Source: Candidatus Aminicenantes bacterium (GTDB taxonomy: Bacteria > Acidobacteriota > Aminicenantia > UBA2199). Taken from it: 64,000 nucleotides of DNA. Below the pieces are notes generated by a model. The model made no database searches. It was not told the origin of the DNA and saw nothing but the letters and a program-made list of their open reading frames with translations. Positions within the stretch are counted from its first letter, which is position 1; the number at the start of each line of letters is the position of its first letter. Below are positions 1,852 through 21,776 of this stretch, piece after piece. The DNA lies in assembly GCA_963759765.1 (NCBI GenBank), contig CAVXAL010000002.1, positions 464,228-528,227 of the forward strand, in the 5' to 3' direction. Both the position numbers and the translations under genes were made by a program.

Positions 1852-3464
1852 CAGATAGAAATCAAAATTTGTTATAATATTAGCTGAAAAGGCTGATGAA
1901 TAAAGGCTGAAGACGATATTGCAGCGGGAAAATCGGAGAGGGTTGATGGGTGAGAGCAAAAAAGAAGTTTTACGGGTCCAATTTGATCCCACAGTGAAGC
2001 TGGAATTCCACGGTGCCAAGATAACCAGTGACGGCGGTCTGCTACTTTACAGGGAGATGGACGAGGTGCTGGGATTGACGGCTTTAGCCGAGGAAGTTCT
2101 TCAGGATCTGCGCACGGGCCAGAATACCCGGCACACGATGACGGCACTGCTTCGGCAAGCGGTATACGGGCGTCTGGCCGGATACGAGGACACCAATGAC
2201 GCTGAGCGGCTGCGAGTCGACCCGGCTCTGCGCCAGATCGTAGGCGGCCGCGCCAGGAAGCACCTGGCGGCATCGACCAGCCAGATGAGCCGTTTCGAGA
2301 CGGAGATACTAGCCAGCGATGAAAATGTCCAGACGCTGTCCGATCTGTGCGGAAGGTGGATAGCGGAAGCCAATCGGCGTTCCAACGCCAAGGAACTGAT
2401 CCTGGACATGGACAGTTCGGAAAGTCGGACCCACGGCCGCCAGGAAGGGTCGGCCTGGAACGGTCATTTCGAGTGCACCTGCTATCATCCCCTGTTCTGC
2501 TTCAACCAGTTCGGCGATCTTGAGCGGGCGATGCTGCGCGAGGGCAACGTGCACAGCGCCGCCAACTGGCGGGCGGTGCTGGAGCCAGTGGTTGCCCGAT
2601 ACAGACAGCATGTAATGAATCGTTACTTCCGGGGTGATGCGGCGTTCGCCCAGCCCGAGATCTACGAGTATCTGGAAGGCGAGAGGTTTCTTTACGCCAT
2701 CCGCCTGCCAATCAACGACGTGCTGCAACGGGAGATAGAGCACCTGACGACCCGGCCCGTGGGCCGGCCATCTCACAAGCCCAAGGTTTTCTACCACAGC
2801 TTCATGTATCAGGCCAAGAGCTGGAGTCGGCCCCAGCGTGTGGTGGCCAAGGTTGAGTGGCATCATGATGAGCTGTTTCCGCGCGTTGGCTTCATCGTGA
2901 CCAACCTGAACCGGCGGGCCAAGAACGTGGTGCGGTTTTACAACAAGCGCGGGACCGCCGAGCAGTGGATCAAGGAAGGGAAGATCGCGCTGACCTGGAC
3001 CCGGCTTTCGTGTCACGGCTTCCGGGACAACGAGGTGCGGCTGCAACTCTTCGCCCTGGCATACAATGTCGGCAATTTCCTGCGCACCCTGGCCCTGCCC
3101 CGGAAAGTCAGCCGATGGACATTGACCACCCTGCGGGAGAAGTTGATCAAGATAGGAGCCAAAGTCGTGCGGCACGCGAAATACGTCACTTTTCAAATGG
3201 CCGAAGTGGCGATCCCGCGGAGCTTGTTTGCGTTGATCCTGGACAAGATCGCCCAACTGCGGCTGTTGCCTGAAACCAGTTAAAATGGCCGGTACACTGA
3301 AGGCAGCGGAGTCTCAACATCACGGGGAGAGGCCTGTCTTCAAGCCGAGAAAAAGGGTGATTGCAGGGGGAAAATGCCTGAATCGTAGTCCGTTGAGGCT
3401 AAATGGATTGGTCCGGGAGTGTAGCTCTTGAAAATGTTTTCCAACAATAGGAGAATACTATCTG
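1852..3464 (+). mobile_element. candidate IS1380-family insertion sequence (boundaries tentative)
   Basis: Contains the transposase ORF. An imperfect terminal inverted repeat is proposed: CAGATAGAAATCAAAATTTG at 1852 versus the reverse complement of 3445-3464, CAGATAGTATTCTCCTATTG (13/20 identical, first 7 exact). The implied length of about 1.6 kb fits the family. No convincing target-site duplication was seen. Confidence 0.3.
1919..3283 (+). CDS. IS1380-family DDE transposase
   Basis: 454-aa ORF with family-typical blocks: ITSDGGLLLYREMDEVLGL, LILDMDSSESRTHGRQEGSAWNGHF, FRGDAAFA, VRFYNKRGTAEQWIKEGK, FRDNEVRLQLFALAYNVGNFLR. Confidence 0.85.
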   Translation: MQRENRRGLMGESKKEVLRVQFDPTVKLEFHGAKITSDGGLLLYREMDEVLGLTALAEEVLQDLRTGQNTRHTMTALLRQAVYGRLAGYEDTNDAERLRVDPALRQIVGGRARKHLAASTSQMSRFETEILASDENVQTLSDLCGRWIAEANRRSNAKELILDMDSSESRTHGRQEGSAWNGHFECTCYHPLFCFNQFGDLERAMLREGNVHSAANWRAVLEPVVARYRQHVMNRYFRGDAAFAQPEIYEYLEGERFLYAIRLPINDVLQREIEHLTTRPVGRPSHKPKVFYHSFMYQAKSWSRPQRVVAKVEWHHDELFPRVGFIVTNLNRRAKNVVRFYNKRGTAEQWIKEGKIALTWTRLSCHGFRDNEVRLQLFALAYNVGNFLRTLALPRKVSRWTLTTLREKLIKIGAKVVRHAKYVTFQMAEVAIPRSLFALILDKIAQLRLLPETS

Positions 3465-3479
3465 TAGAGGAGGCATCAA

Positions 3480-4451
3480 ATGGCTTGGATCAGGTTCGTG
3501 GTAAGAGGCGCTCTGCTCGTGGCGCTCTTGGCAGGTGTTTGCGCTGCCCAGACTGGCAATCAGCGGCAGCAACTAGAGGCTGATGCAGACTGGACATATG
3601 GCCCCTCGATCAAAGGAATGCCGCAGAAGAGCGTGCCGGCCGTCGAGGTGCCCCGCACAACGTATGTCGAGATGTTGGGAAGAGGCTACGCACGAATTGG
3701 GGAATTCACCTATGACAGCGAAAAACATGGTCACGATGTAGGCCGCTGCAAGCAGGACATGCTGGAGATGGCGATGTTGCATGGGGGCGATGTCGCCTGG
3801 GTTTACGCATCCGCCGATAAGCGGGAAAAAGACACTTGGGTCGATGACCATACAGTCTACTATACTACCTCCAGCGGAACTGCTACGAGCCACACCACTC
3901 CAGGTCACTATCGCCACAAGAAGGTCAAGCACGTCTTCGGGAGTGTTGTTTACTTCGTGCACAACCCGGAACTTGCGGCAAAGCAGTTGGAGGAGGGAAG
4001 GAAGAAGTGGGAGATGAGAGCGGCGGCGATCCCGGGAAAGCGGTCCGGCATGGTCGCTATGTTAGATACTGTGCTCATCAAATTGTCCGCTATGCCTGCG
4101 TCCCAGATATGGCCCTGGAACCGAAGTAAGGAGAAGTATATAAGTGGAATTCGGGCCGCCCAGGATGAGTTGAAGCAAGGGAAATGGGGTCTCTACGATA
4201 CGTGGCCCCGAAGCTTCCGTGACACACTCGAGCGCACAAAAATGGAAGATGGTCCCCTCCCGGGTTTGGGGACCTTCTCGGAGCTTATTAATTTCGTCAA
4301 TAACTATGAGTCGAATCATTGGGCCGAGAGCGCTCAGCTCGGCGAACTGCATCAAGCAGTCTCGGCGGCCAGGGTTTATGCCTACACGAATTGGGACATC
4401 ATCATTGATCAAGTAACGCTGAATTCAGCCGAGCATTTTTGCCCTTATTGA
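3480..4451 (+). CDS. secreted hypothetical protein, paralogue family member 1 (no WG repeats)
   Basis: Signal peptide MAWIRFVVRGALLVALLAGVCAAQ. RBS GAGGAGG lies upstream. Shares an N-terminal module (GRGYARIG...HGGDVAWV...VHNPEL) with the 9685 and 7484 proteins. Confidence 0.7.
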   Translation: MAWIRFVVRGALLVALLAGVCAAQTGNQRQQLEADADWTYGPSIKGMPQKSVPAVEVPRTTYVEMLGRGYARIGEFTYDSEKHGHDVGRCKQDMLEMAMLHGGDVAWVYASADKREKDTWVDDHTVYYTTSSGTATSHTTPGHYRHKKVKHVFGSVVYFVHNPELAAKQLEEGRKKWEMRAAAIPGKRSGMVAMLDTVLIKLSAMPASQIWPWNRSKEKYISGIRAAQDELKQGKWGLYDTWPRSFRDTLERTKMEDGPLPGLGTFSELINFVNNYESNHWAESAQLGELHQAVSAARVYAYTNWDIIIDQVTLNSAEHFCPY

Positions 4452-4484
4452 TGTTCTCCACTTAACACGCAGGGTTTCATCAAT

Positions 4485-5815
4485 GTGCAGCCTCTCCGCT
4501 ACTGGACGTCTATTCGGAGCGACCACGCTCGTCTCGTGTGGATAGTCGACATGGAGCATGGCGAATCGGACCCCCACGATATTATCCTGACCAATAGTTG
4601 GTTCTACGTGTGGCTGGTGCGTTCCGTCCTGAAAACCGACTCCTCCGGACCGTCCCAGGCCGCCACGACCCCGGGCGCCGAATACCAGGTCATCCAGAGG
4701 ATTCCTGTGCCGGACGAGGTGGGCCGCGTCGGGGTGATGAAGGTTAAGAGCGACGGAAGCCTCGTGCTTTATACGGCGCTCCTCAGGAACTCTCTCGAGG
4801 AAGCCCTCCTGGCCAATACCACGCGGTTGACCAATATGTTGTTGGATACGGCCAAGCAAGCCCGGGCCAAAGGCGGGGATCCCCGGATTTCGGTCGAGGC
4901 CGCCGATTACAGCTTCAGCATGATCGCTCAGGTTGAAGTCAGCCCTTTTAATTCTCCCGTGGATAAGGCGGGCGTTTTTGCCGGTGTCGAAGGCGGATGG
5001 GAATGGGTGGCCTATTATGTCACGACCCAGAAGGCCGGCCCCTTTGTATTGATCAACGAGCTGAAAGCCCCGGCCTTCCGCCCTGTCTCTTTCGCCTCAG
5101 GCGCGTTCCCGAGCTTTCTGCAGATCTCGCGCGCTCAAAAGGAAATCGCCTATTGGGCCCAGGCGGGCAGCAAGATCAGTCTCATGGTCGGGCGAGAGCA
5201 GGCCGCCCAGCTGGAGGAAGGCTCGGCCCCGAGGGGCCCGGCCCTCTTCTTCCGGGGAGCCCCCCCATCGGGATGGCCTATGTCGCCGAAAGCCCGGCCA
5301 AAGGGTCGGCCCTTTACCTCAATAATCAAAAAGTCAGTTTGGATTACGAGGCTATCGAACCCGCCCTCAACTCCAAAGGGCGCAACGTCGGCTATATCGC
5401 CAAGGCCGGAAACAGGTTCCTTCTGTTCGTGAACGGGACGGAGCAGGCCACCGGATTCGTCCCGGCCCATGGCTTAACCTTCTTTGCGGGCGGAGACGCT
5501 TACGCTTTCGCCGCCGTCCAAGGGGGCCGGGAATTCGTGGTGAAGAACGGACTCAAATCCTTGTCCACCTTTGTCCGCGTGACCCAAAACAGAGATTTCG
5601 GCCATGTGCTGGACCTCGCGTTCAACAGCATGGCGACGAAAGTGGCCTATGTCGCCGAAGACGGGAAAAAAGAATGGGTTATGGTTGATGACCAGAAGGT
5701 GACTCCGGAATTTGACCGGGTGACCTTCAACCGGGAGAATTATGAATGGGGAGGGCCTCTGGTTTTCGCGGGCTATGACGCGGCAAAGCGTGTGATCATC
5801 GTCGGCAAGTTGTGA
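4485..5815 (+). pseudogene. hypothetical protein with C-terminal YVA/YIA beta-strand repeats, split by a frame break in a C7 run
   Basis: ORFs 4485-5432 and 4997-5815 join sensibly only across ccccccc at 5260-5266 (...ALFFRG|(A/S)PPIGMAYVAESPAKG...). The C-terminal part carries the repeats GMAYVAE, NVGYIAK, DAYAFAA and KVAYVAE. Confidence 0.5.
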
Positions 5816-6071
5816 GCGATCGGGGTATAAGAATTTCTTTTTCGGTTGCACCCGCCAAGGAACGCTGTTTACGGTTGAACGGCTCCATTTCTTCTCCGCT
5901 GGGGACATAAATCGGAGCTCGGAGGATGTCAACGACGGTTGGAGAACTGGGTCGGACGGCCCCCTGGACGTCCTCGGCGGCAGATGAGGTGTCGTGTCCA
6001 AGTCAGAGACCAGATGCTTGAGCATCTTACTTCAGAGGTTGTTTATTGAGCGGGGGCGGGTCAGTTATGTG

Positions 6072-7484
6072 TTATGGCTTTATTGTAACTATGCCGGTCT
6101 TGTCGACATAACCTTCTTGCTTGCCAATTTTAACTTGTGCTAAACCGTTCTTGAATTCAGTTGCATCATCGAATTGCGGTGCGATGATGATCTTTCCTGT
6201 TTTGTCGATATAGCCAAATTTTTTGTTGATTTTTATCCGGGCAAGCCCCTCGGAAAATTCCCACGCGCGGTCGAACTTGGAGTCGATGATGAATTTACCG
6301 GCATAATCTATAAATCCAAATTTATAACTCTTTAGTGTCCCCACCGAAACCGGTGCCAGTCCCTCAGAAAACTGCCCCACGCCCAAGAAGGATGGTTGTA
6401 TAACCCAATGTCCCGTTTTATCGATAAAGCCGAAGCGATGCGCATCCGTTCGGAGATCACCTGCACCGGCGCCAGCCAATCCTTCTGAAAAGCGGCGCGC
6501 CCCATCGAAGATAAGTGGAATCACAAGTATTCCCTCCTTATTGATATATCCGGATTTGCTGTTGAACCAGTATTGGCCCTTGCTGACGCATCCCACACCT
6601 TCAGAAAAGTCCGCGGCAAAGGAGTATTGGGGTTGGATGGCCGTTTTCCCTTGAGCGTCTATGAATCCCATCAAGCCGTTTATCCTGATGCAGGCAAGTC
6701 CTTCTGAAAATCCATATGCATTCTCCAAACCTCTTAGTACTATGTTCCCTGATTTCTTGTCCATATATCCATATTCCAGCGGATCTAAAGACAATTTAAT
6801 AGGAACTAGAAACTCTGAAGAAGGAGCATTATTTTGATATCTTCTTTCTAGTTCATTATATTTTTGAATTCTAATCTGCCTTTCTTTTATCCAGGTGATT
6901 AACTCAGGATCGTGTCTCCACACGGTTCCATAGCTGGTGGTGCCGTATTCAACGGCAGGTATTTTTTCCCAATCGTCAGCCACGTGAACGGTGATTCTAT
7001 CTGTTATAGTATAGCCAGCGTGATCCCAACTTGAGCCAATGTACGTACTCACAGTGCGCTCTTCTTTATGCCAGGCTATGGGTTTACCTCGTACTGTTGT
7101 TTCATGTACAAAAGGATAGTTGTCAGCGGTTAGCACCACGATATCCCCTCCCCGTTTTGCAACCTTTTCCATAAGAATTGAAGTGGTATCATCATTGAAT
7201 GTCTGGGTTTTAGATATGTTTGGGTCGGACAATCTAGCACCCTTTATTACTTTGTGAATGTATGTGATTCCTATCAGGCCAATTTTCAGATACCCGTCAT
7301 GCTCGGGGTTAGCTTGAATGGTTTTACATATTTTCGGTTTGGTCGGCCGAGATGATAGTTTTTCGTGCGCTTCAAGAATCTTGGTTGGGTTATATTCGAT
7401 TTTTGGGTTTGGATCTTTAGCCAAAGCCGTTGAATAAGTGCACAAGAAAAACAAAAGACAGTGGGATACCCTGTGTGACTTCAT
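6072..7484 (-). CDS. secreted WG-repeat (WG_beta_rep type) protein, paralogue family member 3
   Basis: Signal peptide MKSHRVSHCLLFFLCTYSTALA. Repeated units of the form FGFIDKTGHWVIQPSF..VGQFSEGLAPV / FGYIDKTGKIIIAPQFDDATEFKNGLAQV. The N-terminal module is shared with the 9685 protein (RGGDIVVLTADN...WHKEERTV...VADDWEKIP...VWRHDPEL). Confidence 0.8.
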   Translation of the reverse strand: MKSHRVSHCLLFFLCTYSTALAKDPNPKIEYNPTKILEAHEKLSSRPTKPKICKTIQANPEHDGYLKIGLIGITYIHKVIKGARLSDPNISKTQTFNDDTTSILMEKVAKRGGDIVVLTADNYPFVHETTVRGKPIAWHKEERTVSTYIGSSWDHAGYTITDRITVHVADDWEKIPAVEYGTTSYGTVWRHDPELITWIKERQIRIQKYNELERRYQNNAPSSEFLVPIKLSLDPLEYGYMDKKSGNIVLRGLENAYGFSEGLACIRINGLMGFIDAQGKTAIQPQYSFAADFSEGVGCVSKGQYWFNSKSGYINKEGILVIPLIFDGARRFSEGLAGAGAGDLRTDAHRFGFIDKTGHWVIQPSFLGVGQFSEGLAPVSVGTLKSYKFGFIDYAGKFIIDSKFDRAWEFSEGLARIKINKKFGYIDKTGKIIIAPQFDDATEFKNGLAQVKIGKQEGYVDKTGIVTIKP

Positions 7485-7589
7485 TTGAACCTCTCTGTAG
7501 GTAAGTGAGCTAGGGCCATCCAGGTCTACTCCAATAGGAGGAACTCATATGGACTGCCCAGAAAACTAACTCCTTAAATTCTGCTCCGC

Positions 7590-8081
7590 CTATTTCCAGG
7601 ATGTGCCTTTCGGCCCTGTTATAGTAACGGTTGCATAATAGGTAATTTCAGCAAAAACACCCGACCCCATCTTCCAATCTATTTGGAGCAATGGCTGGTC
7701 TTTTCCGGTCGGATCATTCGCGAGGGCAGCCGTATTATCATTCTCGCTGAGTTTATGAACATCTGCGGACTTGACAACCCACCCATTTTTCAGCGAGAGA
7801 CTCCTCCACAGTTCATCCGTTTTCTCACATCCCCTCGTCGCTGCCACACTATGCGTGACTTCGTAATGAGCATCAGGGTAATCTGGAGGATAATAGCGAT
7901 TAGCAAATGGACCATCACTAGAATTGCATGGCGTGAGACTATAGTCCCCAACTTGTGGATCCAACAAGACGAGTTCCAGATCCTGGATTGACTCGGAAGG
8001 GCTTGAAATCGCTTTTTCCGACTTTGGTTTCGACGTAGATATAGCCGTCGTAGGCTGGATATCCGCTCGTATCAGGGACAA
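7590..8081 (-). CDS. hypothetical protein, or the C-terminal domain of the upstream gene; start uncertain
   Basis: 163-aa ORF overlapping the upstream ORF by 143 nt in another frame. No signal peptide. See findings. Confidence 0.35.
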   Translation of the reverse strand: MSLIRADIQPTTAISTSKPKSEKAISSPSESIQDLELVLLDPQVGDYSLTPCNSSDGPFANRYYPPDYPDAHYEVTHSVAATRGCEKTDELWRSLSLKNGWVVKSADVHKLSENDNTAALANDPTGKDQPLLQIDWKMGSGVFAEITYYATVTITGPKGTSWK

Positions 8082-9120
8082 CGGCTATGATTTGCGTATT
8101 CGACCAGATTTGCACGATGGCGTCCATAAATACTCCCGGGGCCACAAGGATAACAACTCTTGGTTGAGCCTCGATGACTTGTTGAGCCATCCCCTCCACG
8201 AACACCTGATAATTTGATCCCTGGATCAACATCGCTTCACCCTTCTGACCCTGGCTTTTGTCAATAGAATCGAACTTCGGAGGTCCCGGCGGATTGATCA
8301 ACGTCCCAGGCTTGATTCTGACAGTCGGAAACGTTGGCGCTGAAGGCTTGGGAAAAGTGGCGACCCTCCTCGCAAGGTCGGCCTTGAATCGATTATCTCT
8401 CGCCGCATACATATTCGCGAGCTCAAGTTGCTGGTTTTTCAACTTCGATTGGACCAGCTGCGAATAGCGTTGCGCAGCCTGTTTGGATCGCGCTCTTGAT
8501 GAAGCCAGCGTTGCCTTGATTTCACCAACGCTTTTCGTGGTGTTGCCGGCACGGATGAGTTGACTATCTGGGAGAGTCCGAAAATCGATTTTCTTGCTCT
8601 CGAGTTCATGGACATCAATGACGTTCTTAGCTACAACACTCTCCTGAGTTGGTGATGCCTTCTGGGCCGGCGCCCGGACCTCAATCGTCAAAACTGTATT
8701 GGATAAGTCGAAAAGCTTCTTTCGGCTGGCATCATAAACGGTCAGAAGATAGTTGCTCGCCACTTGCGCTTTAGCGGAAGCTCTGAGCGAGACCTTAAGC
8801 ACAGTCGGCAACTGAGAATGATCAAGGGATGCCTCAATCCGCGTCGCCGTGTTCCCGGCTCGCGTGACCTGGGCTGAGCCAATCATCGACAGATTAGTTC
8901 CTTTAATTACAACGATAACCGCCTCTCCGCCTTGGATAAGGACGGCCCTCTGGGGTGTGACCGAGATCTTGCTCGGCCGGGCACTGATGACGCTTGGCTT
9001 CTGCAGAGCTTGCTGTGGCTCAGCCATGATGCCGGGCAATCCTGATGAAAGCGCCCAAATAAGAACAAACAAGATCATAAGGCAAGAAAAAACTCCCATC
9101 CGAAAAAACCTTCTTGTCAT
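7939..9120 (-). CDS. secreted or anchored protein with Ig-like (IPT/TIG-like) domains
   Basis: N-terminal hydrophobic anchor MTRRFFRMGVFSCLMILFVLIWAL. Beta-rich segments resemble IPT/TIG folds (VTPQRAVLIQGGEAVIVVIKGTNL; GEAMLIQGSNYQ...IIAVVPD...GYIYVETKVGKSDFKPFRV). Confidence 0.55.
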   Translation of the reverse strand: MTRRFFRMGVFSCLMILFVLIWALSSGLPGIMAEPQQALQKPSVISARPSKISVTPQRAVLIQGGEAVIVVIKGTNLSMIGSAQVTRAGNTATRIEASLDHSQLPTVLKVSLRASAKAQVASNYLLTVYDASRKKLFDLSNTVLTIEVRAPAQKASPTQESVVAKNVIDVHELESKKIDFRTLPDSQLIRAGNTTKSVGEIKATLASSRARSKQAAQRYSQLVQSKLKNQQLELANMYAARDNRFKADLARRVATFPKPSAPTFPTVRIKPGTLINPPGPPKFDSIDKSQGQKGEAMLIQGSNYQVFVEGMAQQVIEAQPRVVILVAPGVFMDAIVQIWSNTQIIAVVPDTSGYPAYDGYIYVETKVGKSDFKPFRVNPGSGTRLVGSTSWGL

Positions 9121-9684
9121 TTTCTCCCTCCTCCTATGAATATCGAAAGAAGAGGAGAAGGCGTCTGTTGGACAATCCGCGGCTTCAGGACCTTTATCCC
9201 CTCTTGGATATGTTTATACCCCCTGGTTGCTTAATTGTCAAGGAGTGCAACAGAATCCCGTCGAGTTCTACCGAGGTGTGCTTTTGGTTTGTCCCACACT
9301 TGTTTCACCTGAAATTGACCTTCCCCTTGAAAAATCAGTCATCACCGGGAAAACGGCCATCCGGACCGACAATCCGCCCGTTGGGGCGGCCGGCCCTCTC
9401 GATCTTGGGCTCTTGACTTAAGCCAACGGCTGGCCTAAACTCCATTTGTGAGGGGACGGCCCGATTCCGAGCTTTAAGGCGGCCCTCTCATGATGGGCCG
9501 AAAAATGAAATTCTTATCCTTTCCGATCCTCAAGAAGCGGTCAGAGCTTCCCAGCGGTGCTAGGAGATTTTGGGTAGACCGAAAGGAAATTGCTATGCCC
9601 AGACCACCTTCTCGCCGTCTGGCGAACACGGTTTGGGACCGCAGTGCCGCCCTTCTTCGCAGCCGGCTACTCCATGGAGCACAT

Positions 9685-11355
9685 ATGAACAGACCCGGAC
9701 TTCGTCTTTTGATCCTGGCATTCCTGATCCTTCTGGCAGGCCCTGAAACCATTGCCTCCGACACGAAACAATTTGTACCTACCGCCGGCATGAAGGGTTT
9801 CGAGCTGAGTCCTCGCCCGGCCCCGGCGCAGGTCGCCCGAGAATCCGAAGAAGAAATGAAGGGGAAGGGGTTCGCGAGGATAGGAACAATCAGCAATTGG
9901 GTTATCACGGCAACCTACTGGGGTTCCACGGATCTCAACGTGTCCGCTCCGTCGACGCGGCGGGATCTCACGAAAGAGGTCTGCGAAGAAGCCGCCGAAC
10001 GCGGCGGCGATTTCGTGACCCTGACGGAGGACAATCTTCCCATCAAGCGGCACGTAACGAAGAACGGCAAAGCGATTCGTTGGCACACAGAGGATAGGCA
10101 GGTGACGGTCAACATAGGCACCGTGGATAGGCCTGTATATAAGGACCAATGGCATACGACCAAAGTGGCTGATGCATGGGAGCAGATCCCTGGCGTCCAA
10201 TGTTCTGTCAGGAGCTCAGGGGATGTCTGGCGCAACGAGCCGGACCTGCCTCGCCGATTTGCCGAATGGAGAAAGGTGGTTGCCGAACGGGAAAAGGCGG
10301 AACGCATGGCCGCGCGCAAGAAGGAGACGCGGAGCGTTTTTTTGCGTGGTGGGGATTACTACTGTCCACCCCGCGGGGTCTATGCGGAGGGCCTGAAGCC
10401 CTTCATGAACGCCGATGAACGTGTCGGGTATGCCGACCGGGACGGCACGACGGTCATCGAGCCGCAGTTCCTCTTTGCGGAGAATTTCAGCGACGGACTG
10501 GCCCAGGTGTTGGCCGAGGGGGAAGGCACGTCGTATATCGACAAAACCGGGACGCGGGTCCTCGTGCCGCCATCCCATTCCTGGCGATGGGGGGATTTCC
10601 GGGAAGGTATGGCACGTGTAGGGGTTGGCGAATCGTACCCGGACCAGGACCTGAAATGGGGGTACATGGACACGACCGGAAAGCTCATCATCCCGGCACA
10701 GTTCGACGACGCAGAGGACTTTTCGGAAGGGCTCGCGCGGGTGAAGATCAAAGGTGCTTCAGACAAGTGGGGATACATTGACAAGAAGGGACAGTATGTT
10801 GTCCCGCTCCAGTTTCTTGTAGCCGGCGATTTCCGGGACGGGCTTGCACCGGTCATGCCTTTCTACCGGGGAGGGAAGTATGGCTACATCGATCCTACGG
10901 GGAAGTGGGTCATTCCCGACACCCAATTCCTGGGCGCCCGGGAGTTCTCGGAAGGACTGGCGCCCGTCGAGATCAACCTCGGAACCGACAAACGGGTGAA
11001 TTTCAAATGGGGTTACATCGACAAGCAAGCCAACTTTGTGATCAAAGCGCAATTCGACGAGGCGTTCCCCTTCTCGGACGGCATGGCCCGGGTGGTGAAG
11101 ATCAAGGGGTGGGACACGAAGAAGTACGGGTTCATCGACCGGACGGGGAGGATGGTCGTCGAACCGGTCTACGACAAGGCGAACGATTTCTGGGACGGAC
11201 TGGCTGTCGCCTGGCCGGTCTGGCAGGTGAACCTCGAGAAATGGACGTTGAAATCCCCTCCCGGAAAGATCCTCAACAAGGAGGGACAGATCATCGGCGT
11301 ATTGGACGTGCTCGGGACGGTCCGGTGGATGTCCAAGCCGCAAGGCGATCGCTGA
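9685..11355 (+). CDS. secreted WG-repeat protein, paralogue family member 2
   Basis: The ORF track starts at 9490. The internal ATG at 9685 gives the signal peptide MNRPGLRLLILAFLILLAG. At least seven WG repeats are present (KWGYMDTTGKLIIPAQFDDAEDFSEGLARV, KWGYIDKKGQYVVPLQF, KYGYIDPTGKWVIP, KWGYIDKQANFVIKAQFDEAFPFSDGMARV, KYGFIDRTGRMVVEPVYDKANDFWDGLAV). Confidence 0.8.
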   Translation: MNRPGLRLLILAFLILLAGPETIASDTKQFVPTAGMKGFELSPRPAPAQVARESEEEMKGKGFARIGTISNWVITATYWGSTDLNVSAPSTRRDLTKEVCEEAAERGGDFVTLTEDNLPIKRHVTKNGKAIRWHTEDRQVTVNIGTVDRPVYKDQWHTTKVADAWEQIPGVQCSVRSSGDVWRNEPDLPRRFAEWRKVVAEREKAERMAARKKETRSVFLRGGDYYCPPRGVYAEGLKPFMNADERVGYADRDGTTVIEPQFLFAENFSDGLAQVLAEGEGTSYIDKTGTRVLVPPSHSWRWGDFREGMARVGVGESYPDQDLKWGYMDTTGKLIIPAQFDDAEDFSEGLARVKIKGASDKWGYIDKKGQYVVPLQFLVAGDFRDGLAPVMPFYRGGKYGYIDPTGKWVIPDTQFLGAREFSEGLAPVEINLGTDKRVNFKWGYIDKQANFVIKAQFDEAFPFSDGMARVVKIKGWDTKKYGFIDRTGRMVVEPVYDKANDFWDGLAVAWPVWQVNLEKWTLKSPPGKILNKEGQIIGVLDVLGTVRWMSKPQGDR

Positions 11356-13527: not shown

Positions 13528-16500
13528 ATGAAGAGAATCGTGATTTTCATTCTGTTCGGGGCGGTTATCTTAACGATATTTGTTCTGTCCTCGGGCGCGG
13601 GCCTCCCTGTCGAGCAGGGAAGCCTGCGGGCACATCCGCCTGTTGCTGCCGCTGGTCAGGAAGGCACCCCCAAAACCCTGCATCTGAGAGCCGGCGATTA
13701 CGATGTCACTGTTTCCGCCAACGGCGCTGTCATGGCGGTGGAAAAGAGAGGCGGCTACGCGCTTAGGAACACTGGCCTGGACACGGCTGGTGAGCTTATT
13801 CTCGATGACCGAGTTTTCCCGCTGGCCAGTCCAACTGCGGTCGAGGAGAAAGTTGACGGTCTCCATTTTCTCTATGACGTGGCCTCAACTCCGGACCTCC
13901 GGGTCGAGCTCGTTTATCGGCTGACGCAAACCGGAAAGTCGGTCAGCCTGGTCCGAGAGATCAACCTGGCGTCTGCCGCGGCCTTGGCCACACCCGCCGC
14001 TCCTCCTTCCTCAGCGAGATTCGGGGCCGACCTTACGGTCCGCCTTCCTCTCGCCCCCCTGAGGCTCACGCCAGAAACCTGGCTGCCACTCAAAAACGGC
14101 GTCGGCAGGACCCTGGCCGACGATAAGCAGGCCATGTATCGCTTCGCCGGCGTCCTTCGCTCCGAGGGAGTGCCGCTCGCCATACCCATGGTCAGCTTCG
14201 CCGCAAAAGAATTCGCCGGCCGCGTGACCGTGGCTTTGGATCCTTATTACTCGGTGCTGTTCTCCAGCGATGCAGTTGAGTGGACGTACCCCAAATCCAT
14301 TGGCCTCGAAAACGGCAAGGAAAGCCGCTCCCTCGCCGTCATCTTCCATCCCGGCACCCCGGACGATGCGGTCGCCGAATTCTACCGCTGCGCTCTTGCC
14401 GATGTTCCGCCCGGGCCTTCCTGGCTCCATGACATCGCCCTGGTTGATTACGACTACCTGAGCGAGGGCGGACGCGGCTGGTTCAAAGATATCGCTGCCC
14501 TGACTGCTGCTATCGCCAGGGAGGACCGCGCCAAAGTCCTGCTCTGTCTTCACGGCTGGTACGACTTTGTCGGCCGCTACACGTTCGACCGGCATACGAA
14601 AACGCTGTCCCCCGCCTGGACCGCCTTCGCCAATTATCCGCAAGTCAAAAAGGACTTCCCCTTCAGCGTGCCCGTCGCCCTGACTCTCAAGGACATGCAC
14701 GAGCGCCTGGCCTATGCCCGGTCGCGCGGCTTCCGCGTCGCGCTCTACTTTGCCGACGGCATGAACGCCGGCGACGGCCTCGCCGACATCTACGCAGCGG
14801 AGCGCGTACTCCGCTGGGGCGGGTGGCAAGGCCCGGACACCAGGGGCAAGACCTACGTCCAAAACCCTCTCTGCCCCGAGGTGCGCGGTTTCTTCCTCGA
14901 CTATGTCAAGGCCCTTCTCCAGGAGTATGGAAAAGAGCTCGACGCCCTGGTCTGGGATGAAACGTTCCATGTGCCGGAGGGGAGCCTGGGCTCGGAAATG
15001 CGGCCCGGCTATGCCGACCGGGCCATGATGCGTCTGACCCGCGACATCACCGCCGAGGTCCGTGCCTTCAACCGGCGCGCCGGTCAAGAGGTGGCCTTCC
15101 TGGCCTCGGACTGCATCGGCGTTTTCAACTGGGTGACGAAACCGCCCTATGCGCTGGTCGCCGACGGCACCTACCAGGACACCCACTGTGCGCCCGAGGC
15201 CTGGTCCTTCGGGATTTTCCCCAACTACCGCAACGTCCTCTGGTCCTGCAACTGGGAGCCGGTCACGCACTGGGATTACACCGAATTCGGCGTCCGCAGC
15301 TACCAGACCGCAGTGGCCGTAGCCAACGGCTGGGGAGATTACTGCGGGTTCGCGGCGATGTCGCCCGCCCTGAAGCAGAAGGTCCTGGCGCTCTTCAACT
15401 GGCGCAAGCGGTTTCCGACGCGCCTGCGAACGCTGGACAGGCTCCCCGTCTATCAAGGCCATCCGGTTGTCAAGTGCATCGCCGATGAGGTCGCTGCCGG
15501 GATTTCCTTTCTGAGTTGGGACACGGAAGGCGGCGACAGGGTCGACACGAACCTGCTGAGGACGGAGTCCGCGGTTAAGCTGCAATTCCTTGAGAATGGC
15601 GCCTGGCTCGACGCGCAGATGAAAAAGCGGAGCGTCGAAGAGAGCGGGGCGGTCAACTATGAACTCGAAGCGGGTGGCGCGCGCTTGACCTGGAGGATTG
15701 AACCGGGAGCAATCCGGGACGTCGGCGGCAAGCTCAAGCTGGCGGTAAGCGCTCCCGGAAACCGCCTAGAATCCGCCCGGTTCCTCTTTCCCTTTGCACC
15801 CGGAATCACGCCTGTCACCGTGCTGCCGAGCGTCTGGCAGGACGACGGGATTTTCCGCCTGCCTGCGGTCATCAACGCGCCTGACTTCGGCCCGCTGCTG
15901 CTTGCGGAAGCCGGTGGCCGGAATGTCTGCGGCCGGCTGGAAGGGAGCCGGCAGAACAAAATCGTCGACCTCACGCTCGAACTACCCGAAATCGTGGCCG
16001 ACAAACCGATCACCCTGACCCTCACGCCACTCCTGCTGAAGCCTCCTGCCGGGCTCGGCGACGCCAACTTGTGGCATTCCGCCCGGCGCGGCTGGCTCAA
16101 CGCCCTCCAGCCCTGCGCCCGCTGGGGCGAACAGGACAAGCCGTTCAGCTCCCCGGCCGGAATACTCGGGAACAATGTTGTCAGCGACCCGGCCAGCGTC
16201 TCGCTCTGGTTCTATGCCGACCAGGCCTTTTGGACTCCGGAGGTCGCGCCCGGCGTCTCCCTCATGCCGCTCGTCCGCCGGACGATCGATTACTGGCTCG
16301 ACCAGCGCCTGCGGCGCGATGAGCAGGGCCGGCTGACGGGCGAGATCACGGGCTACTGGGACTACGGGAATTTCCTCGACGCCAACGCCTCGCCGCTCAT
16401 CTCCGCCTGGGACTACGTCGAGGCAACGGGCGACCAAGCCTGGCTCAGGGCGCGGATCGAACGGCTTGAGCTCGTGGCTGACTTCCTGGCCCGCCGCGAT

Positions 16501-18468
16501 GTCGACCACGATGGCTTCGTCGAAGCAGTCCAGAGCGGAAACCGAGGCTCGCTCGTCCAGCCCAACCGTTCCTGCGCCTGGTGGGACGCGCTCAACTGCG
16601 GCCACAAGGACGGCTACACCAACGCCCTCATCTATCGCGCCTGGCGCTGCCTGGCCGATCTCGAGGCGCAACTCGGACGAAGCGATAGGGCGAGCGAATA
16701 CACCCGGCTCGCCGACAGGCTCAAGTCCGTCTACACGAACACTCTCTACAACCCGCTGACCGGATGGCTGGCCTGGTGGAAGAGCGCCGACGGCGAGCTC
16801 CACGACTACGCTTCGCCGACGCTCAACGGCCTGGCCATCGAATACGGGCTGGTCGAACCGGAGCTCGGGCGCCAGATTCTCGACCGGCTTTGGAAAAAGA
16901 TCAGCGCGGCCGGTTTCACGCGCTTCGACCTGGGAATCCCGCCGATGCTCATCCCGGTCCACCGCAGCGATTATCTCCAGCCCGACGCCATCGGCATACC
17001 GCTGCGCGAGGACGGCACAGACACCTTCGGCCAGTACATGAACGGAGGGATCACGGCCGGCCACGTTCTCCATTTTCTCGCCGCGCACTATGTCCTCGGC
17101 GAAAACGAACGGGCCGACAGAGTGCTGCGGGCCATGCTCGAGCGCCAGTTGCGGGGTGAGTTCCAGAACGGCGTCCGCGACGCCGGCGGCCAGGGTGCCG
17201 ACTGGACGAGCTGGGACGGAAAACCCAGCGGCTACGAGGGCTACCTGGCCGACAGCTTTCGCTTCCTCCAGGCGGTTCTGCTGCGCGAGCCGGCATTCCG
17301 GGCACGCATCTACCGGCCGCTGCATCCGGTGAATAAATCCGATGACCGTCTGAAAGATGACTTTGCCTTCCTCGAGGCCAGCACGAAAAAACTTCTCGAC
17401 GGGTGCATCATCAAGGCGGCCGACGGGACGCCTCTCTACACACCCGACGGCAAAGCCAATTACGCGGCGCTCTGGACAAGGGATTTCGCTTCGATGGTGG
17501 AATATGCTGGCGACCTCATGCCGCCCGATAACATCGAAAAATGCATCGCCTACCTGATCAAGGGCGTCAGGGCCGACGGCGCTGTGCCGGACCGGGTCCA
17601 GGTGGACGGCCGGCCGGTCTATACGGCCGGACCGCCCGATGCGCCACCGGCCGAGCCGAACATCGACAATGCCCAATTCCTCGTTTTCGCCGTCAACTTC
17701 TATCTCGAGTTGGTTCCCGAGGGCGGGCGGGCCGCGCTTTACAGAAAATGGTCGCCGCTGCTCGTCAAGGGCATGGATTATATCCCGCGCACCGCGAACG
17801 GGCTGGTATGGAACGATCCCCGCAAGCCCCATTCGCCCTATGGCTTCACGGACACCGTGGCCAAAACCGGTGACCTCTTCATGGAATCCCTTCTTTACTG
17901 GCGGGCCTCGATGATGCTCGCCCGATGGGAAGGCGCCTATGGGAGTGCTAAGGCCCGGGACGGTTTCTTGGCGCGGGCCGCGGCGATCGAGAAGAGTATC
18001 GGCTCACTCTGGGACGACCGGACGGGCATGTTCTTCGCCGCTTCCGGAGATTGCCGGCAAACGGATGTCTGGGGCAACGCCTACGCCGTCGTCATCGGTT
18101 TCCCGCTGGCCGGGTGGAAAGACCGCATCGTCGATGCCCTTGTATCCAACTACGACCGTTACGTTTGGAAGGGGCAGGTCAGGCATCTCCCGTCCGGCGA
18201 GTACTGGCAGCGTCAACTCATGCCCGTCGAGAAGGAGCGATACCAGAACGGCGCGTTCTGGGCGACACCGGCTGGCTGGCTCATGGGAGCCTTGAACGGG
18301 TGCGCCCCGGACCTTACCCGGCGGATGTTCACGGACCTCGTCGAGGACTTCAGGACCGGAGGAATCTGCGAGTGCGTCAACGCCGGATACCGGAAACTCG
18401 AGAGCTACGTCAACAGCGCGACCAATCCCCGGGGAGCCGCCCGAAAAATCTGGAGTGGTGCACAATAA
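13528..18468 (+). CDS. 1646-aa secreted or anchored multidomain glycoside-hydrolase-like protein
   Basis: N-terminal anchor MKRIVIFILFGAVILTIFVL. Central TIM-barrel-like region (LCLHGWYDFVGRY, FADGMNAGDG, DALVWDETFH). Two regions resemble (alpha/alpha)6 barrels: GYWDYGNFLDANASPLISAWDYVEATGD...WWDALNCGHKDGYTNALIYRAWRCLADLE, and ALWTRDFASMVEYAG...NIDNAQFLVFAVNFYLE...YQNGAFWATPAGWL. The specific family is not assigned. Confidence 0.6.
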   Translation: MKRIVIFILFGAVILTIFVLSSGAGLPVEQGSLRAHPPVAAAGQEGTPKTLHLRAGDYDVTVSANGAVMAVEKRGGYALRNTGLDTAGELILDDRVFPLASPTAVEEKVDGLHFLYDVASTPDLRVELVYRLTQTGKSVSLVREINLASAAALATPAAPPSSARFGADLTVRLPLAPLRLTPETWLPLKNGVGRTLADDKQAMYRFAGVLRSEGVPLAIPMVSFAAKEFAGRVTVALDPYYSVLFSSDAVEWTYPKSIGLENGKESRSLAVIFHPGTPDDAVAEFYRCALADVPPGPSWLHDIALVDYDYLSEGGRGWFKDIAALTAAIAREDRAKVLLCLHGWYDFVGRYTFDRHTKTLSPAWTAFANYPQVKKDFPFSVPVALTLKDMHERLAYARSRGFRVALYFADGMNAGDGLADIYAAERVLRWGGWQGPDTRGKTYVQNPLCPEVRGFFLDYVKALLQEYGKELDALVWDETFHVPEGSLGSEMRPGYADRAMMRLTRDITAEVRAFNRRAGQEVAFLASDCIGVFNWVTKPPYALVADGTYQDTHCAPEAWSFGIFPNYRNVLWSCNWEPVTHWDYTEFGVRSYQTAVAVANGWGDYCGFAAMSPALKQKVLALFNWRKRFPTRLRTLDRLPVYQGHPVVKCIADEVAAGISFLSWDTEGGDRVDTNLLRTESAVKLQFLENGAWLDAQMKKRSVEESGAVNYELEAGGARLTWRIEPGAIRDVGGKLKLAVSAPGNRLESARFLFPFAPGITPVTVLPSVWQDDGIFRLPAVINAPDFGPLLLAEAGGRNVCGRLEGSRQNKIVDLTLELPEIVADKPITLTLTPLLLKPPAGLGDANLWHSARRGWLNALQPCARWGEQDKPFSSPAGILGNNVVSDPASVSLWFYADQAFWTPEVAPGVSLMPLVRRTIDYWLDQRLRRDEQGRLTGEITGYWDYGNFLDANASPLISAWDYVEATGDQAWLRARIERLELVADFLARRDVDHDGFVEAVQSGNRGSLVQPNRSCAWWDALNCGHKDGYTNALIYRAWRCLADLEAQLGRSDRASEYTRLADRLKSVYTNTLYNPLTGWLAWWKSADGELHDYASPTLNGLAIEYGLVEPELGRQILDRLWKKISAAGFTRFDLGIPPMLIPVHRSDYLQPDAIGIPLREDGTDTFGQYMNGGITAGHVLHFLAAHYVLGENERADRVLRAMLERQLRGEFQNGVRDAGGQGADWTSWDGKPSGYEGYLADSFRFLQAVLLREPAFRARIYRPLHPVNKSDDRLKDDFAFLEASTKKLLDGCIIKAADGTPLYTPDGKANYAALWTRDFASMVEYAGDLMPPDNIEKCIAYLIKGVRADGAVPDRVQVDGRPVYTAGPPDAPPAEPNIDNAQFLVFAVNFYLELVPEGGRAALYRKWSPLLVKGMDYIPRTANGLVWNDPRKPHSPYGFTDTVAKTGDLFMESLLYWRASMMLARWEGAYGSAKARDGFLARAAAIEKSIGSLWDDRTGMFFAASGDCRQTDVWGNAYAVVIGFPLAGWKDRIVDALVSNYDRYVWKGQVRHLPSGEYWQRQLMPVEKERYQNGAFWATPAGWLMGALNGCAPDLTRRMFTDLVEDFRTGGICECVNAGYRKLESYVNSATNPRGAARKIWSGAQ

Positions 18469-18559: not shown

Positions 18560-21500
18560 CTATTCTTGGATGTTCATTCTCTCCGCTGCGCGCAGAGTCA
18601 CCGGGCCCAGGAGGCCGGAGGGCTGCAGGTGTTCGCCTTTCTTCCAGAGCCGCCAACTCGTGAAAGTGATGCGGCCGGTCGGGCTTGGCTGCCCTGCCTG
18701 GACCCACGGCGGCCAGGACTTGAGCGTGCCGTCGCTGTTGCGCTCGCTGTCTTCGGGCAGCTGCTCGTCGCCGAGCATGCGGTTGATCCAGAGGTTGGTG
18801 ACTTTCACTTCGAGCGTGTTTTCGCCGGGCCGGGCGGCAGCCGTCACGTCCAGGGTAAAGGACGGCTTCCACAGGACGCCGAGGTCCTTGCCGTTTAATT
18901 GAACCCGGGCCATCACGGCGACCGCGCCCAGGTCCAGGTACAGACGCCGGTTCTTGGCGAGCATCTTGGCGGGGATGCGGATTTTTTTTGTGTAGGTCGC
19001 GGTGCCGGAGAAGTATTTCACGCCCGTTTCGGGGTGCTCGCTCCAGGAAATGAGTTTCGCGAGAGAGATTTTCTGCGGCGCACCCAGGTGAGGTGGGAAG
19101 GAGACCTGCCAGGGACCGCTGATCGGCAGGGGTGGAGGAAGCGCCGAAACTCGAACCTGCCGGGTTCGGCCGGAGGCGGTCTTCAGCTCGAAGCGGCCTG
19201 CTTGCTGCGCCTCGAGAATAAGGCGGTTCCCCGCGCCGCGGTGGAGTTCGACCAGGGGCGGGGGGGTGCCGGGAGGGGCGATGGCGATGGTGTCGGTATC
19301 AATGCCGCTGGCAGTAAACGATTTATCCGCGATGGTGTACTCCACCACCACTCGCTTGAGCGTCCCGAAGGCCGGGTCGTCGCCTGCGGCAAGGCGCCCG
19401 ACCTTGAAGCTGAGGTCGCCTCGATCGATGAGTTCCTGCACCTTGGCCCGGACGTCGCGGGTGCGCGGCGGGTCCTCCAGCACCCCGTACACGGCTTTCC
19501 GGACGACGATTGGCGGCAGCGCCTCCGACAGCGAGAGCAGCGGCCGGCGGTCAACGGTCAGGGCCACAACCGGATCGGATTTCTCCGCCCTGTGGCGGAA
19601 GACCACGAACACCGAGCCGTTTGGCCCGAGCGGCAGAAGCACGCGGGTGCAGCTTCTCCTGTTCCCGATAAACCGGGGCGGTTTCGATGCGTCCCGTATC
19701 CGGCCACCAGAGTTCCGGCACTCTGCCGCTGACCCGGAACGTGCAGGTCGTCGGCTCGCAGCCCGGCAGGGAACGGGCGATGAAGTAAATCTCCGTGTCG
19801 CCCGAGCGGCGGTGGATCCAGCGGATATGAGCCGGCGCGCGGACATCGGGCGGAACGCCCAGCACGGCGAGCAACTTCTCGGGCGGCTGGTTCGCCAGCA
19901 CCTTGTTCTTGCCCCACAGTTCTTCGCCAAGCCGCTGCACTTCCTCGTCACAGTGTGGAAAATCGGTCAGGCTGGGTGATTGGGTCGGCCGCGGTCCGAT
20001 AACGGTGGCGCCGGCCTCGGCCAATTCCTTGATCTTGCGCAGCAGCGGCGGGGTCATAGCTGTGACCGGGGGCAACACCAGCAGGCGATAACTCATGCCG
20101 TCGGGCAGGAAGATGCGGCCATCCTTCACGCTCATCCGCGTGAGCACCGCTTCGGCGGTGCAGTTGTCGAAGTCGTAGCCCTGGCAGGGGTGAGAGAGAA
20201 ATCCCTGCGGTGCAGCTTCGGGTTGAAGGTAGCAGATGTCGGCGACGAAAAGGCCCTGGCGCAAGAGGCTTTGGCAGCGCGCCAGATACTCGTGCCAGCC
20301 GGGCGTCAGCTCCCACCAGGTCTGGGTGCGCTCGTAGTGGAGGCCCCACGGCCCCATGCTCATGCCGGGCCGGAAGTTCAGCCAGGGCTGCAGGGCGTAG
20401 CGGTGAAAGACGAAGCGGTTGATGCCGGCGCAGAGGGCGCGGTCGCCGAGCGCCTTGATCGTAGCGGGATGCTCCTGCCAGCGTTCCGAGTCGTCGGCCG
20501 TGAACGATTCCGCGCCGATGATGCGCTTGCCGTAGGTGTGCGCCGCCGATGACATCTCCTTGCACGTCTCAAACGCGCCGCCGCCGACCCAGAACTCGGC
20601 CATCGGTTCGTCGGCGCGGCCGGCGTAAGTCATGTCGTCGCAGGGGCCGCCGTACGCTTCAATGGTGAGGCGGAGGCCGTGCTGCTGAGCCAGCTTTTCC
20701 AGATGCCCGGCGTAGTTCTCCACGAGCAGGTCCGAGATCGTCTGCCGCCAATCCCAGAGGAAGCGTTCCGACACGCTCAGGCTGTCGACCACGCGGCCGG
20801 TCAGCGCCGGCAGAAACAGCAGCGGATCATAACCGCGGCGCCGGCAGAATTCCTCGCGCATCCGGGCCGTCCAGTTCTGCGCGCCGTTCTCCCAGCTGTC
20901 CACGTGCGTGGCGACAAGGCTCTTTCCGGCCGCCGGGCCGACGTCGGCGATCAGCTTGGCCATCATGCCGGCAAACTGGGCTTCGATGCCTTCCGTGCTG
21001 AGTTTATCGCATTCCAAGCCGCGGCCGCTGGCGGGTGCGGGAGCGCACTGGGCACCGGTGCTGGTGTGGCCGAAGCGCAGGATCGTCCACGGGCCGGCCG
21101 GAATGTTCCAGTTCAGGCGGCCGTCCGGCTTCAGCTGCGCCGTCAGATCCACGATGCGGTCGCGCGCGATCAGCAGGGCCGGGGCCAGCCGGTTCTCCTT
21201 TGCCGGAACTATGTCGCCCCGCTCGAAGCCCGCTTTGGCTTTGATGTTTTCGATGCGGAACGCGCCGGGGGTCGGCACGGCCAGCACGGCGATGTCCTGG
21301 TAAAAACCGGCGACCGTCTCCGGCTGTTGCAGGCGGCTGTCGAAATGACGCGGACCTTTGAGATCAACCTCGCTCCAGACGATCTTCTGCATGGATTCTT
21401 CCGGTTTGATCCAGGGCCCGCCGCTGCCGTTCCAGCCGGCATCGTCATTCATGTTCACCTCAAGCCCCAGCCGCTGGGCCTCCGCTGCGGCATGCTTAAA

Positions 21501-21776
21501 CAACTCGCGCCACGGCGCTCCCATGAACGCCACCGGTCCGACCGGAGCGCCCTGGTCCACCTCCATAATTAACACGCCCCCGATGCCGGCGCGCTTCATT
21601 GCCTCCAGATCCGCACTGATGCCCTGTCTGGTGATGTTGCTGTTCAGCCAGAACCAATATACCCACGGCCGCGCCTCCAACGGTGGTGCAATGAAGTTTT
21701 TCTCCAATTCACTGGCCCCAGCCGCGGCTACAAAAACGAACCACAGGGCCATGATCAGAAAATTCTTTTTGTTCAT
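18560..21776 (-). pseudogene. GH106-like (alpha-L-rhamnosidase family) glycoside hydrolase, single frame break
   Basis: N-terminus MNKKNFLIMALWFVFVAAAGA...PWVYWFWLNSNITRQGISADLEAMKRAGIGGVLIME. ORFs 19551-21776 and 18560-19951 join at ...TAPVYREQE|..TRVLLPLGPNGSVFVVFRH, with the break in 19648-19657. Confidence 0.7.

Follow-up and report, generated by a model that had tools for sequence, protein, structure and literature searches.

Three neighbouring genes of a Candidatus Aminicenantes bacterium raise the question of whether the proteins they encode, two of which end in WG beta-repeats, are built on one and the same N-terminal domain and, if so, what kind of domain this is. The genes lie within 8 kb of one another in a 64-kb stretch of contig CAVXAL010000002.1 (the window, to which all coordinates refer), and are called here A (3480..4451, + strand), B (6072..7484, - strand) and C (9685..11355, + strand). 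The original prediction described their products as secreted paralogues that share a module belonging to no recognised family, and as parts of a lineage-specific, expanding system. We find that A, B and C share a homologous N-terminal module, and that this module is a real, unannotated and moderately widespread extracytoplasmic domain family.

Three exported proteins share an N-terminal module

By inspection, all three proteins carry Sec-type signal peptides, as had been proposed, each made up of a basic n-region and a hydrophobic core and ending in a cleavage site of the A-x-A type (MAWIRFVVRGALLVALLAGVCA followed by AQ in A, MKSHRVSHCLLFFLCTYSTALA followed by KD in B, and MNRPGLRLLILAFLILLAGPETIA followed by SD in C). 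In A (323 aa), the signal peptide precedes a short version of the module at residues ~50-166 (3627..3977, + strand), which runs from KSVPAVEVPRTTY through GYARIG, a helix, GGDVAWV and a beta-hairpin to FVHNPEL. The C-terminal region of A (residues 167-323; 3978..4451, + strand) is predicted by AlphaFold2 (AF2) to form a long helix and then a helical bundle, with helices at residues 163-203, 217-233, 261-280 and 285-308; a Pfam scan of A detected no WG repeats, and no Pfam match at all. B (470 aa) consists of a signal peptide, the module at residues 30-196 (6897..7397, - strand; E 1.3e-45 with the module hidden Markov model (HMM)), a charged helix, and WG beta-repeats at residues ~236-470 (6072..6779, - strand; PF14903, E 5.9e-57). 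C (556 aa) was read from the methionine at 9685, whose equivalent is the first residue of its closest homologue (P0011); a longer open reading frame (ORF) from 9490 is unsupported, as P0011 begins at that equivalent methionine. Its signal peptide is followed by the module at residues 30-191 (9772..10257, + strand; module HMM E 4.4e-54), the sequence of which was modelled by AF2, then by a charged, ER/K-rich helical linker (10258..10404, + strand; PRRFAEWRKVVAEREKAERMAARKKETR...), and finally by WG beta-repeats with a C-terminal tail (10405..11355, + strand; PF14903, E 4.1e-61). The PF14903 scores of B and C (189.8 and 203 bits) are far above the cut-off of 25.6 bits, and both proteins carry WG repeats as expected; motif counts gave exactly seven in each (in B, seven G[YF][IVM][DN] motifs) rather than the seven to nine originally estimated.

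The motifs by which the module had been recognised are all present, and are collinear in the three proteins. G(Y/F)xxIG is found at residue 69 of A, 64 of B and 62 of C, GGD at A102, B112 and C107, WHxE(D/E)RxV at B138 and C133, and (D/N)PEL or EPDL at A161, B191 and C184. The module is ~160-170 aa long in B and C and ~120 aa in A, which is less than the 200 aa or so first assigned to it.

The modules of B and C are 37% identical (E 3e-28), and the full-length proteins 34% (E 4e-66). A gave no significant BLASTP match to B or C, and was therefore examined with profiles, using a module HMM built from 109 of the 126 family members described below. A scored 12.4 bits (E 0.0024) against this HMM, and other members of the A family, which comprises only nine proteins, including one that is 61% identical to A (P0003), scored up to 26.3 bits. 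In a ranking that took in every six-frame ORF of 50 aa or longer across the window, C and B came first, A was third, and the next ORF reached 2.7 bits. Shuffled A-family sequences (n = 2000) attained a maximum of 6.6 bits, and all nine A-family members outscored every one of them. The reciprocal search with an A-family HMM ranked C and then B directly after A itself. Alignment of the nine-member A family to the module family with hhalign gave a probability of 97.3% (E 2.5e-11, 87 columns), and 78% when B and C alone were the target; the AF2 models of A and of the C module show their secondary-structure elements in the same order. Judged by HMM score, motifs and position behind the signal peptide, B and C are clear members of the family; A matches weakly (E 0.0024, hhalign 97%), and is a remote, shortened member.

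A widespread family with variable C-terminal partners

When an alignment of the B and C modules was run exhaustively with hmmsearch against 1.84 billion representative proteins, 126 proteins (clusters at 50% identity) were found at E < 1e-3. The clusters are small and nearly all derived from metagenomes or metagenome-assembled genomes (MAGs), and their spread across many of these is at odds with a lineage-specific family. The few source names available are Terriglobia/Acidobacteriia (P0140), Zixibacteria (P0136) and, for a member of the A family, a Terracidiphilus MAG (P0005). Conserved positions include SxRxxPA near the N-terminus, GYxxIG, AAxxGGD(L/V)VxL and S.G.VWRxDPEL.

Other searches returned little. 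A word-indexed homologue search found nothing with the C module and one fragment only with a 44-sequence profile; the C module as a single query retrieved no relatives from metagenomes, and tblastn gave no match to plasmids. Run on 185,579 species genomes (the window's own genome is absent from this set), a degenerate DNA pattern for VWRHDPEL matched at 35 sites, all by chance and none encoding the module; run on metagenomes, it matched at 46 sites, five of which were true family members, on short contigs with no neighbours in common. In the literature we found nothing on the module, on DUF1471 together with ankyrin repeats, or on the function of WG repeats.

The module almost always lies directly behind the N-terminal signal (median envelope start, residue 33) and sits farther in the protein in only four of the 126 members, while a lipobox-like motif is present in 55. 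Twenty of the 126 are stand-alone module proteins of ~170-215 aa. Among the 109 full-length members, a Pfam scan confirmed the anticipated co-occurrence with WG repeats (39 members), though ankyrin repeats are commoner (54 members); FGE-sulfatase, Sel1, sortilin/BNR, thioredoxin and TPR domains occur in one case each. This distribution strongly supports the view that the C-terminal cargo is modular, ankyrin and WG repeats being variable cargo and not part of the shared module. Behind the module, WG-type members have a helix rich in E, K and R (in the 35 residues past DPEL the median E+K+R fraction is 0.31, against a background of 0.20); in ankyrin-type members the module runs nearly straight into the first repeat. 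Individual members depart from the common plan: one combines ankyrin and WG repeats within a single protein (P0046), one contains two copies of the module (P0044), one has it internally at residues 240-419 (P0072), and one shows five weak repeats of the last-hairpin segment only, each domain at E ~0.04-0.08 (P0127).

Predicted structure and paired cysteines

The C module was modelled by AF2 from the 44-sequence alignment with a mean predicted local distance difference test (pLDDT) score of 96.4 and a predicted template-modelling score (pTM) of 0.80. The model comprises short N-terminal strands, a helix at residues 26-31, a strand at 34-50, a helix at 66-76, and two long strands at 81-114 and 123-155. 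These last two form a hairpin of ~34 + 33 residues, that is, a predicted two-stranded beta-ribbon of ~70 residues. In the model of A (pLDDT 83.8), the corresponding elements are a helix at 62-67, a strand at 70-80, a helix at 87-100, and strands at 105-129 and 135-161. The length of the ribbon is highly variable, and it is nearly deleted in one A-family member (P0004).

The cysteines of the family occur in pairs. In the 109-sequence alignment, columns 101 and 133, which lie opposite each other across the predicted hairpin, are both cysteine in 97 members and both something else in the remaining 12 (phi 1.0); for columns 49 and 57 phi is 0.94, and for a column in the loop-1 insertion paired with column 144 it is 0.88. 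The number of cysteines in the module is even in 107 of the 126 members. Co-varying pairs of this kind fit disulfide staples, and hence an oxidising, extracytoplasmic location; taken with the model, they strongly support a predicted ribbon that is disulfide-stapled in ~90% of family members. B and C, which have lost the ribbon cysteines, are among the minority that lack them.

Foldseek comparison of the predicted module with PDB and BFVD, a check that the original prediction had proposed, gave no match below E 0.001; all matches were at E > 0.1 with template-modelling (TM) scores below 0.25. Most of the weak matches were to long-hairpin proteins that form rings or pores (TraT, aerolysin, CDTb and FliF RBM3), TraT aligning over 63 columns with a probability of 0.51. 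Both faces of the distal ribbon are polar, the mean hydropathy being ~-1, and show no alternating hydrophobic pattern. A membrane-inserting hairpin was considered and rejected on account of this polarity, and no significant match of the module to a beta-barrel pore or ring former was obtained (PDB matches at E of at least 0.16 and TM of at most 0.2; polar hairpin). For A, a Foldseek search of PDB returned generic four-helix bundles only, for the C-terminal part, at E 0.014 or worse.

A weak but recurrent match to DUF1471

The claim that the module cannot be assigned to a known family held in that no Pfam or NCBIfam model covers it (the 109 full-length members were scanned with Pfam, and NCBIfam matches were below threshold), but gave way in one respect, a weak and repeated link to DUF1471 and YahO. 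The C module showed a sub-threshold NCBIfam match to the DUF1471 protein YahO (NF007400). The same model was weakly matched by 11 of 44 members, with a best E of 0.0099 and ~13 bits against a cut-off of 90; DUF4156 was matched by three of the 44, and PF11524 weakly by one member. A search of PDB sequences with single sequences produced noise only. With the module profile against all PDB sequences, YahO came first (2MA4, E 0.0023; 2NOC, E 0.0033), its Y-T-K-I-G-T-I-S being aligned with YvkIGtis of the module, followed by the module helix and the GGD strand (GADVVVLT in YahO). YahO alone scored 18.2 bits against the module HMM, and hhalign of the module family with the seven DUF1471 paralogues of E. 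coli K-12 gave a probability of 82% (E 1e-5) over 40 columns, a signal that is in register and suggestive though short.

The DUF1471 fold consists of a short strand 1, a short helix, strand 2, a long helix, strand 3 and strand 4, with the sheet order 2-4-3-1 and with variable loops where strand 2 ends and between strands 3 and 4; RcsF shares this fold, both loops being longer and disulfides being present (PMC4092069). The module probably goes with this DUF1471/RcsF fold class as a very divergent, hypertrophied relative. DUF1471 proteins have been tied to phenotypes of stress, biofilm and the envelope, and one of them, YdgH, is a periplasmic monomer that affects susceptibility to beta-lactams and detergents, but a biochemical function is lacking (PMC11705850); the relationship therefore transfers no mechanism to the module.

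A proposed base for C-terminal modules in the envelope

With a confidence a little better than even, we favour the reading that A, B and C are envelope proteins exported by Sec, and independent members of a family in which a new DUF1471/RcsF-like domain serves as the shared base for C-terminal modules. The core of the domain would have the arrangement of DUF1471 (YhcN/BhsA/McbA/YahO) and RcsF, with two loops greatly enlarged: loop 1 would have grown, and the last hairpin would have been turned into the polar, two-stranded ribbon of ~70 residues. Behind the domain would come a charged helix and WG repeats, as in B and C, or ankyrin repeats, or nothing, whereas A would instead combine a shortened ribbon with a helical bundle. 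The domain could then be a rigid base in the periplasm or close to the outer membrane, held by a lipid anchor in many members but soluble in A, B and C. Its part would be to dock the protein in the envelope or set its position there, possibly through self-association. The base would present a variable C-terminal protein-binding repeat module, through the ER/K helix in WG-type members.

Several points weigh against this reading. The DUF1471 link, weak though repeated, lies in the twilight zone of sequence comparison, covering ~40-60 columns and falling below every curated threshold; PF07338 was absent from the 44 members even at E <= 5. The order of elements and the sites of insertion in the AF2 model appear to match the DUF1471/RcsF fold as compared with its published description, and no DUF1471 or RcsF structure was among the 50 best Foldseek matches listed. 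The signal peptides of A, B and C were called by eye and not by a predictor. The docking and presenting role is proposed from architecture, and no gene neighbourhood was conserved at the loci examined. Lastly, the extended ribbon comes from a monomer model, and may reflect an oligomeric state.

An oligomeric state is the starting point of an alternative in which the module is an oligomerisation device, its long hairpins forming a ring or beta-barrel collar (compare TraT, FliF RBM3 and the pentameric YbjQ/DUF74) and its charged helices bundling to give a multivalent display of ankyrin or WG repeats. A hairpin of 34 + 33 residues protruding from a small core would be unusual for a monomer, the weak Foldseek matches are almost all to ring or pore proteins, and the long charged helix directly behind the domain in WG-type members would suit such bundling. 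Proteins of the DUF1471 fold form pentamers, and SrfN dimerises (PMC4092069). These arguments are countered by the poor quality of the structural matches, every one in PDB being at E > 0.1 and TM < 0.2, by the polarity of both faces of the distal ribbon, which makes membrane insertion unlikely, and by the variation in ribbon length, with near-loss in P0004, which is hard to square with a conserved barrel. ER/K-rich helices, moreover, are typically single helices and not coiled coils. We consider the oligomerisation device unlikely.

A bolder proposal keeps the RcsF/DUF1471-type core and supposes that the stapled ribbon, on a scale of 100 Å, runs into an outer-membrane protein or along its side, or forms a collar with other copies, and so holds the ankyrin or WG cargo at a set distance from the membrane, possibly at the cell surface. 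We regard this as distinctly unlikely; if true, it would be a previously unrecognised way for diderm bacteria to present binding domains.

The domain family has its value mainly in annotation and as a target for structural biology, with no functional surprise yet. It lies outside current Pfam and NCBIfam coverage, its boundaries are clear and its structural model is very confident. Tentatively, it brings environmental phyla and multidomain proteins into the DUF1471/RcsF fold class, which until now has been studied in proteins of enterobacteria that act in stress and in envelope sensing. WG-repeat proteins and secreted bacterial ankyrin-repeat proteins are both poorly understood, and the N-terminal base common to many of them offers a first way into their architecture.

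Genomic setting of the three genes

We also considered the possibility that A, B and C form a lineage-specific paralogue family, a cell-surface or secreted system expanding locally in a variable island, as the original prediction had it. The surroundings seem at first to favour this. Three members stand within 8 kb, an arrangement not seen at any other locus examined, and an intact DDE_Tnp_1_4 transposase (1919-3283, + strand; E 2.5e-136), correctly recognised as such from the outset, lies 200 bp upstream of A; a family member from a metagenome (L059) also adjoins a DDE transposase. The patchy composition reported for the segment was borne out by GC content and by GC content at third codon positions (GC3). 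GC falls to 43-45% at positions 1-2000 and 6000-8000 of the window, and GC3 is 0.44 in B, 0.64 in A and 0.72 in C, compared with 0.77-0.80 in the genes for a GH106 rhamnosidase and an S9 peptidase and in an ORF of 1646 aa, and 0.63 in a YdbH-like gene. Low values were also observed for the ORF at 7590-8081 (GC3 0.46) and the ORF at 310-1119 (GC 0.38), most other checked genes having a GC3 of 0.72-0.80. These figures suggest that B and the two ORFs are horizontally acquired patches. For B, import is more likely than duplication in place because its GC3 is far below that of C and of the genes at 0.77-0.80.

The notion of expansion is not supported by the genes themselves, which are on different strands, differ in GC3, and are very divergent (34-37% identity, or a relationship visible to profiles only). 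The family is, moreover, broadly scattered (126 clusters). Homologues elsewhere were single-copy within 8-10 kb on each side, with unrelated neighbours, at the loci examined. One (P0019) is flanked by a TPR gene and a CTP synthase gene, and another (P0046) has an amidase gene to one side, an RND efflux operon lying farther out, and a gene for an FMN oxidoreductase to the other. In the A family, the member that is 61% identical to A (P0003) lies among PEP-CTERM and peptidase genes, with no B- or C-type gene. No partner gene is conserved among these three loci, and the metagenome loci share nothing. Local expansion is thus quite improbable; A, B and C are independent, anciently diverged members in a mosaic, transposase-bearing stretch, and constitute neither an operon nor a local expansion.

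The locus itself is reproduced in an independent Logan contig (L001), which encodes an identical B protein and matches the B locus at 99.9% identity. Over 3.5 kb, the only difference from the window is a shifted G in the GGGGTCGGG run at 7662-7665 (GGGGTC-GGG against GGG-TCGGGG), within the ORF at 7590-8081. Between A and B, two ORFs that are out of frame with each other overlap (4485-5432 and 4997-5815, + strand), the first of them starting 34 bp after A. They resemble a single repeat protein, its units following the pattern xAYxAxxGxKxxLxVxG, with a frameshift near 5250. The same arrangement of 4485-5815 is found in the Logan contig, so that it is no assembly error but a genuine pseudogene or a pair of genes. 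Between B and C, a secreted protein of 393 aa (7939-9120, - strand) overlaps the 163-aa ORF at 7590-8081 on the same strand. It had been described as IPT/TIG-like, a description we could not sustain: no IPT/TIG Pfam match was obtained at E < 0.1, nor any other Pfam match at E < 0.01. Downstream of C, the 1646-aa protein (13528-18468, + strand) is secreted and has a weak match to MGH1-like glycoside hydrolases (E 1.4e-7); nearby is the GH106 alpha-L-rhamnosidase (19551-21776), and the two may belong to a glycan-degradation cluster.

Comparison with known systems

The nearest known system is DUF1471/YhcN-BhsA-McbA (PF07338; YahO, 2MA4; SrfN, 2MA8; YdgH/SssB, 4EVU). Like the module, DUF1471 domains are periplasmic and come directly after the signal peptide; the two share the pattern Y-x-K-I-G-x-I-S ... 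helix ... A-x-x-x-G-A/G-D-h-h-h-L-T ... G-T-h-h-(Y/R), and the same two loops vary in both. One might therefore argue that the module is simply a DUF1471 domain overlooked by the models, and YahO is indeed the top match among PDB sequences, with weak YahO matches recurring across the family. The differences, however, are considerable. The mature domain is ~160 aa in the module, about twice the ~70 aa of DUF1471 (as a precursor of ~90 aa, or in tandem copies), and contains insertions of ~15 and ~60 residues, loop 2 being the predicted beta-ribbon of ~70 residues. The N-terminal SxRxxPA and C-terminal VWRxDPEL motifs are absent from DUF1471, the module carries conserved predicted disulfides, and ~13 bits stand against a curated cut-off of 90. 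DUF1471 is reported to be exclusive to Enterobacteriaceae and to have few cysteines (PMC4092069), whereas the module is fused to ankyrin and WG repeats and occurs in environmental bacteria. As it fails the curated thresholds and differs in size, cysteines, partners and taxonomy, the module is best treated as a new family and not as a member of DUF1471; we give the idea of an overlooked DUF1471 domain little credence. It is very improbable, finally, that only B and C share the module and that the GYARIG, GGD and NPEL matches of A are due to chance or convergence, since the BLASTP result and the A-family scores of 8-26 bits, which would fail in a whole-database search, are outweighed by the hhalign probability, by the separation of all nine A-family members from 2000 shuffles, by the position of A as the only other window ORF above noise, by the reciprocal ranking of C and B, and by the common order of secondary-structure elements in AF2.

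RcsF (2Y1B, 2L8Y) is an outer-membrane lipoprotein with a DUF1471-type fold, and the module appears to elaborate the lengthened loops and disulfides of the RcsF type. The lipobox of RcsF has its counterpart in the 55 family members noted above; A, B and C have none, and their signal peptides are of the signal peptidase I type by inspection. Direct comparison of RcsF with the module was not significant (hhalign probability 4.8%; 0.9 bits with the HMM). The best local alignment, which is in structural register, pairs APRATPVRIYTNAEELVGKPFRDLGEVS of RcsF with SxRxxPAxVtxEsEExLxxKGYxxIGxIS. RcsF has no C-terminal repeat domain, and there is no evidence of an Rcs-type partner for the module.

YbjQ/UPF0145, DUF74 and the archaeal selenium-binding protein share with DUF1471 a strand-helix-strand-strand core and elongated sheets (PMC4092069), and the weak PF11524 match of one family member is the sequence link noted here between them and the module. 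Unlike the module, they are cytoplasmic and pentameric, and are without the first strand and the short helix. TraT, FliF RBM3 and aerolysin-type stems resemble the module in their long, protruding, two-stranded hairpins, the Foldseek matches to them being non-significant; the hairpin of the module differs from theirs in being polar, variable in length and, as predicted, disulfide-stapled.

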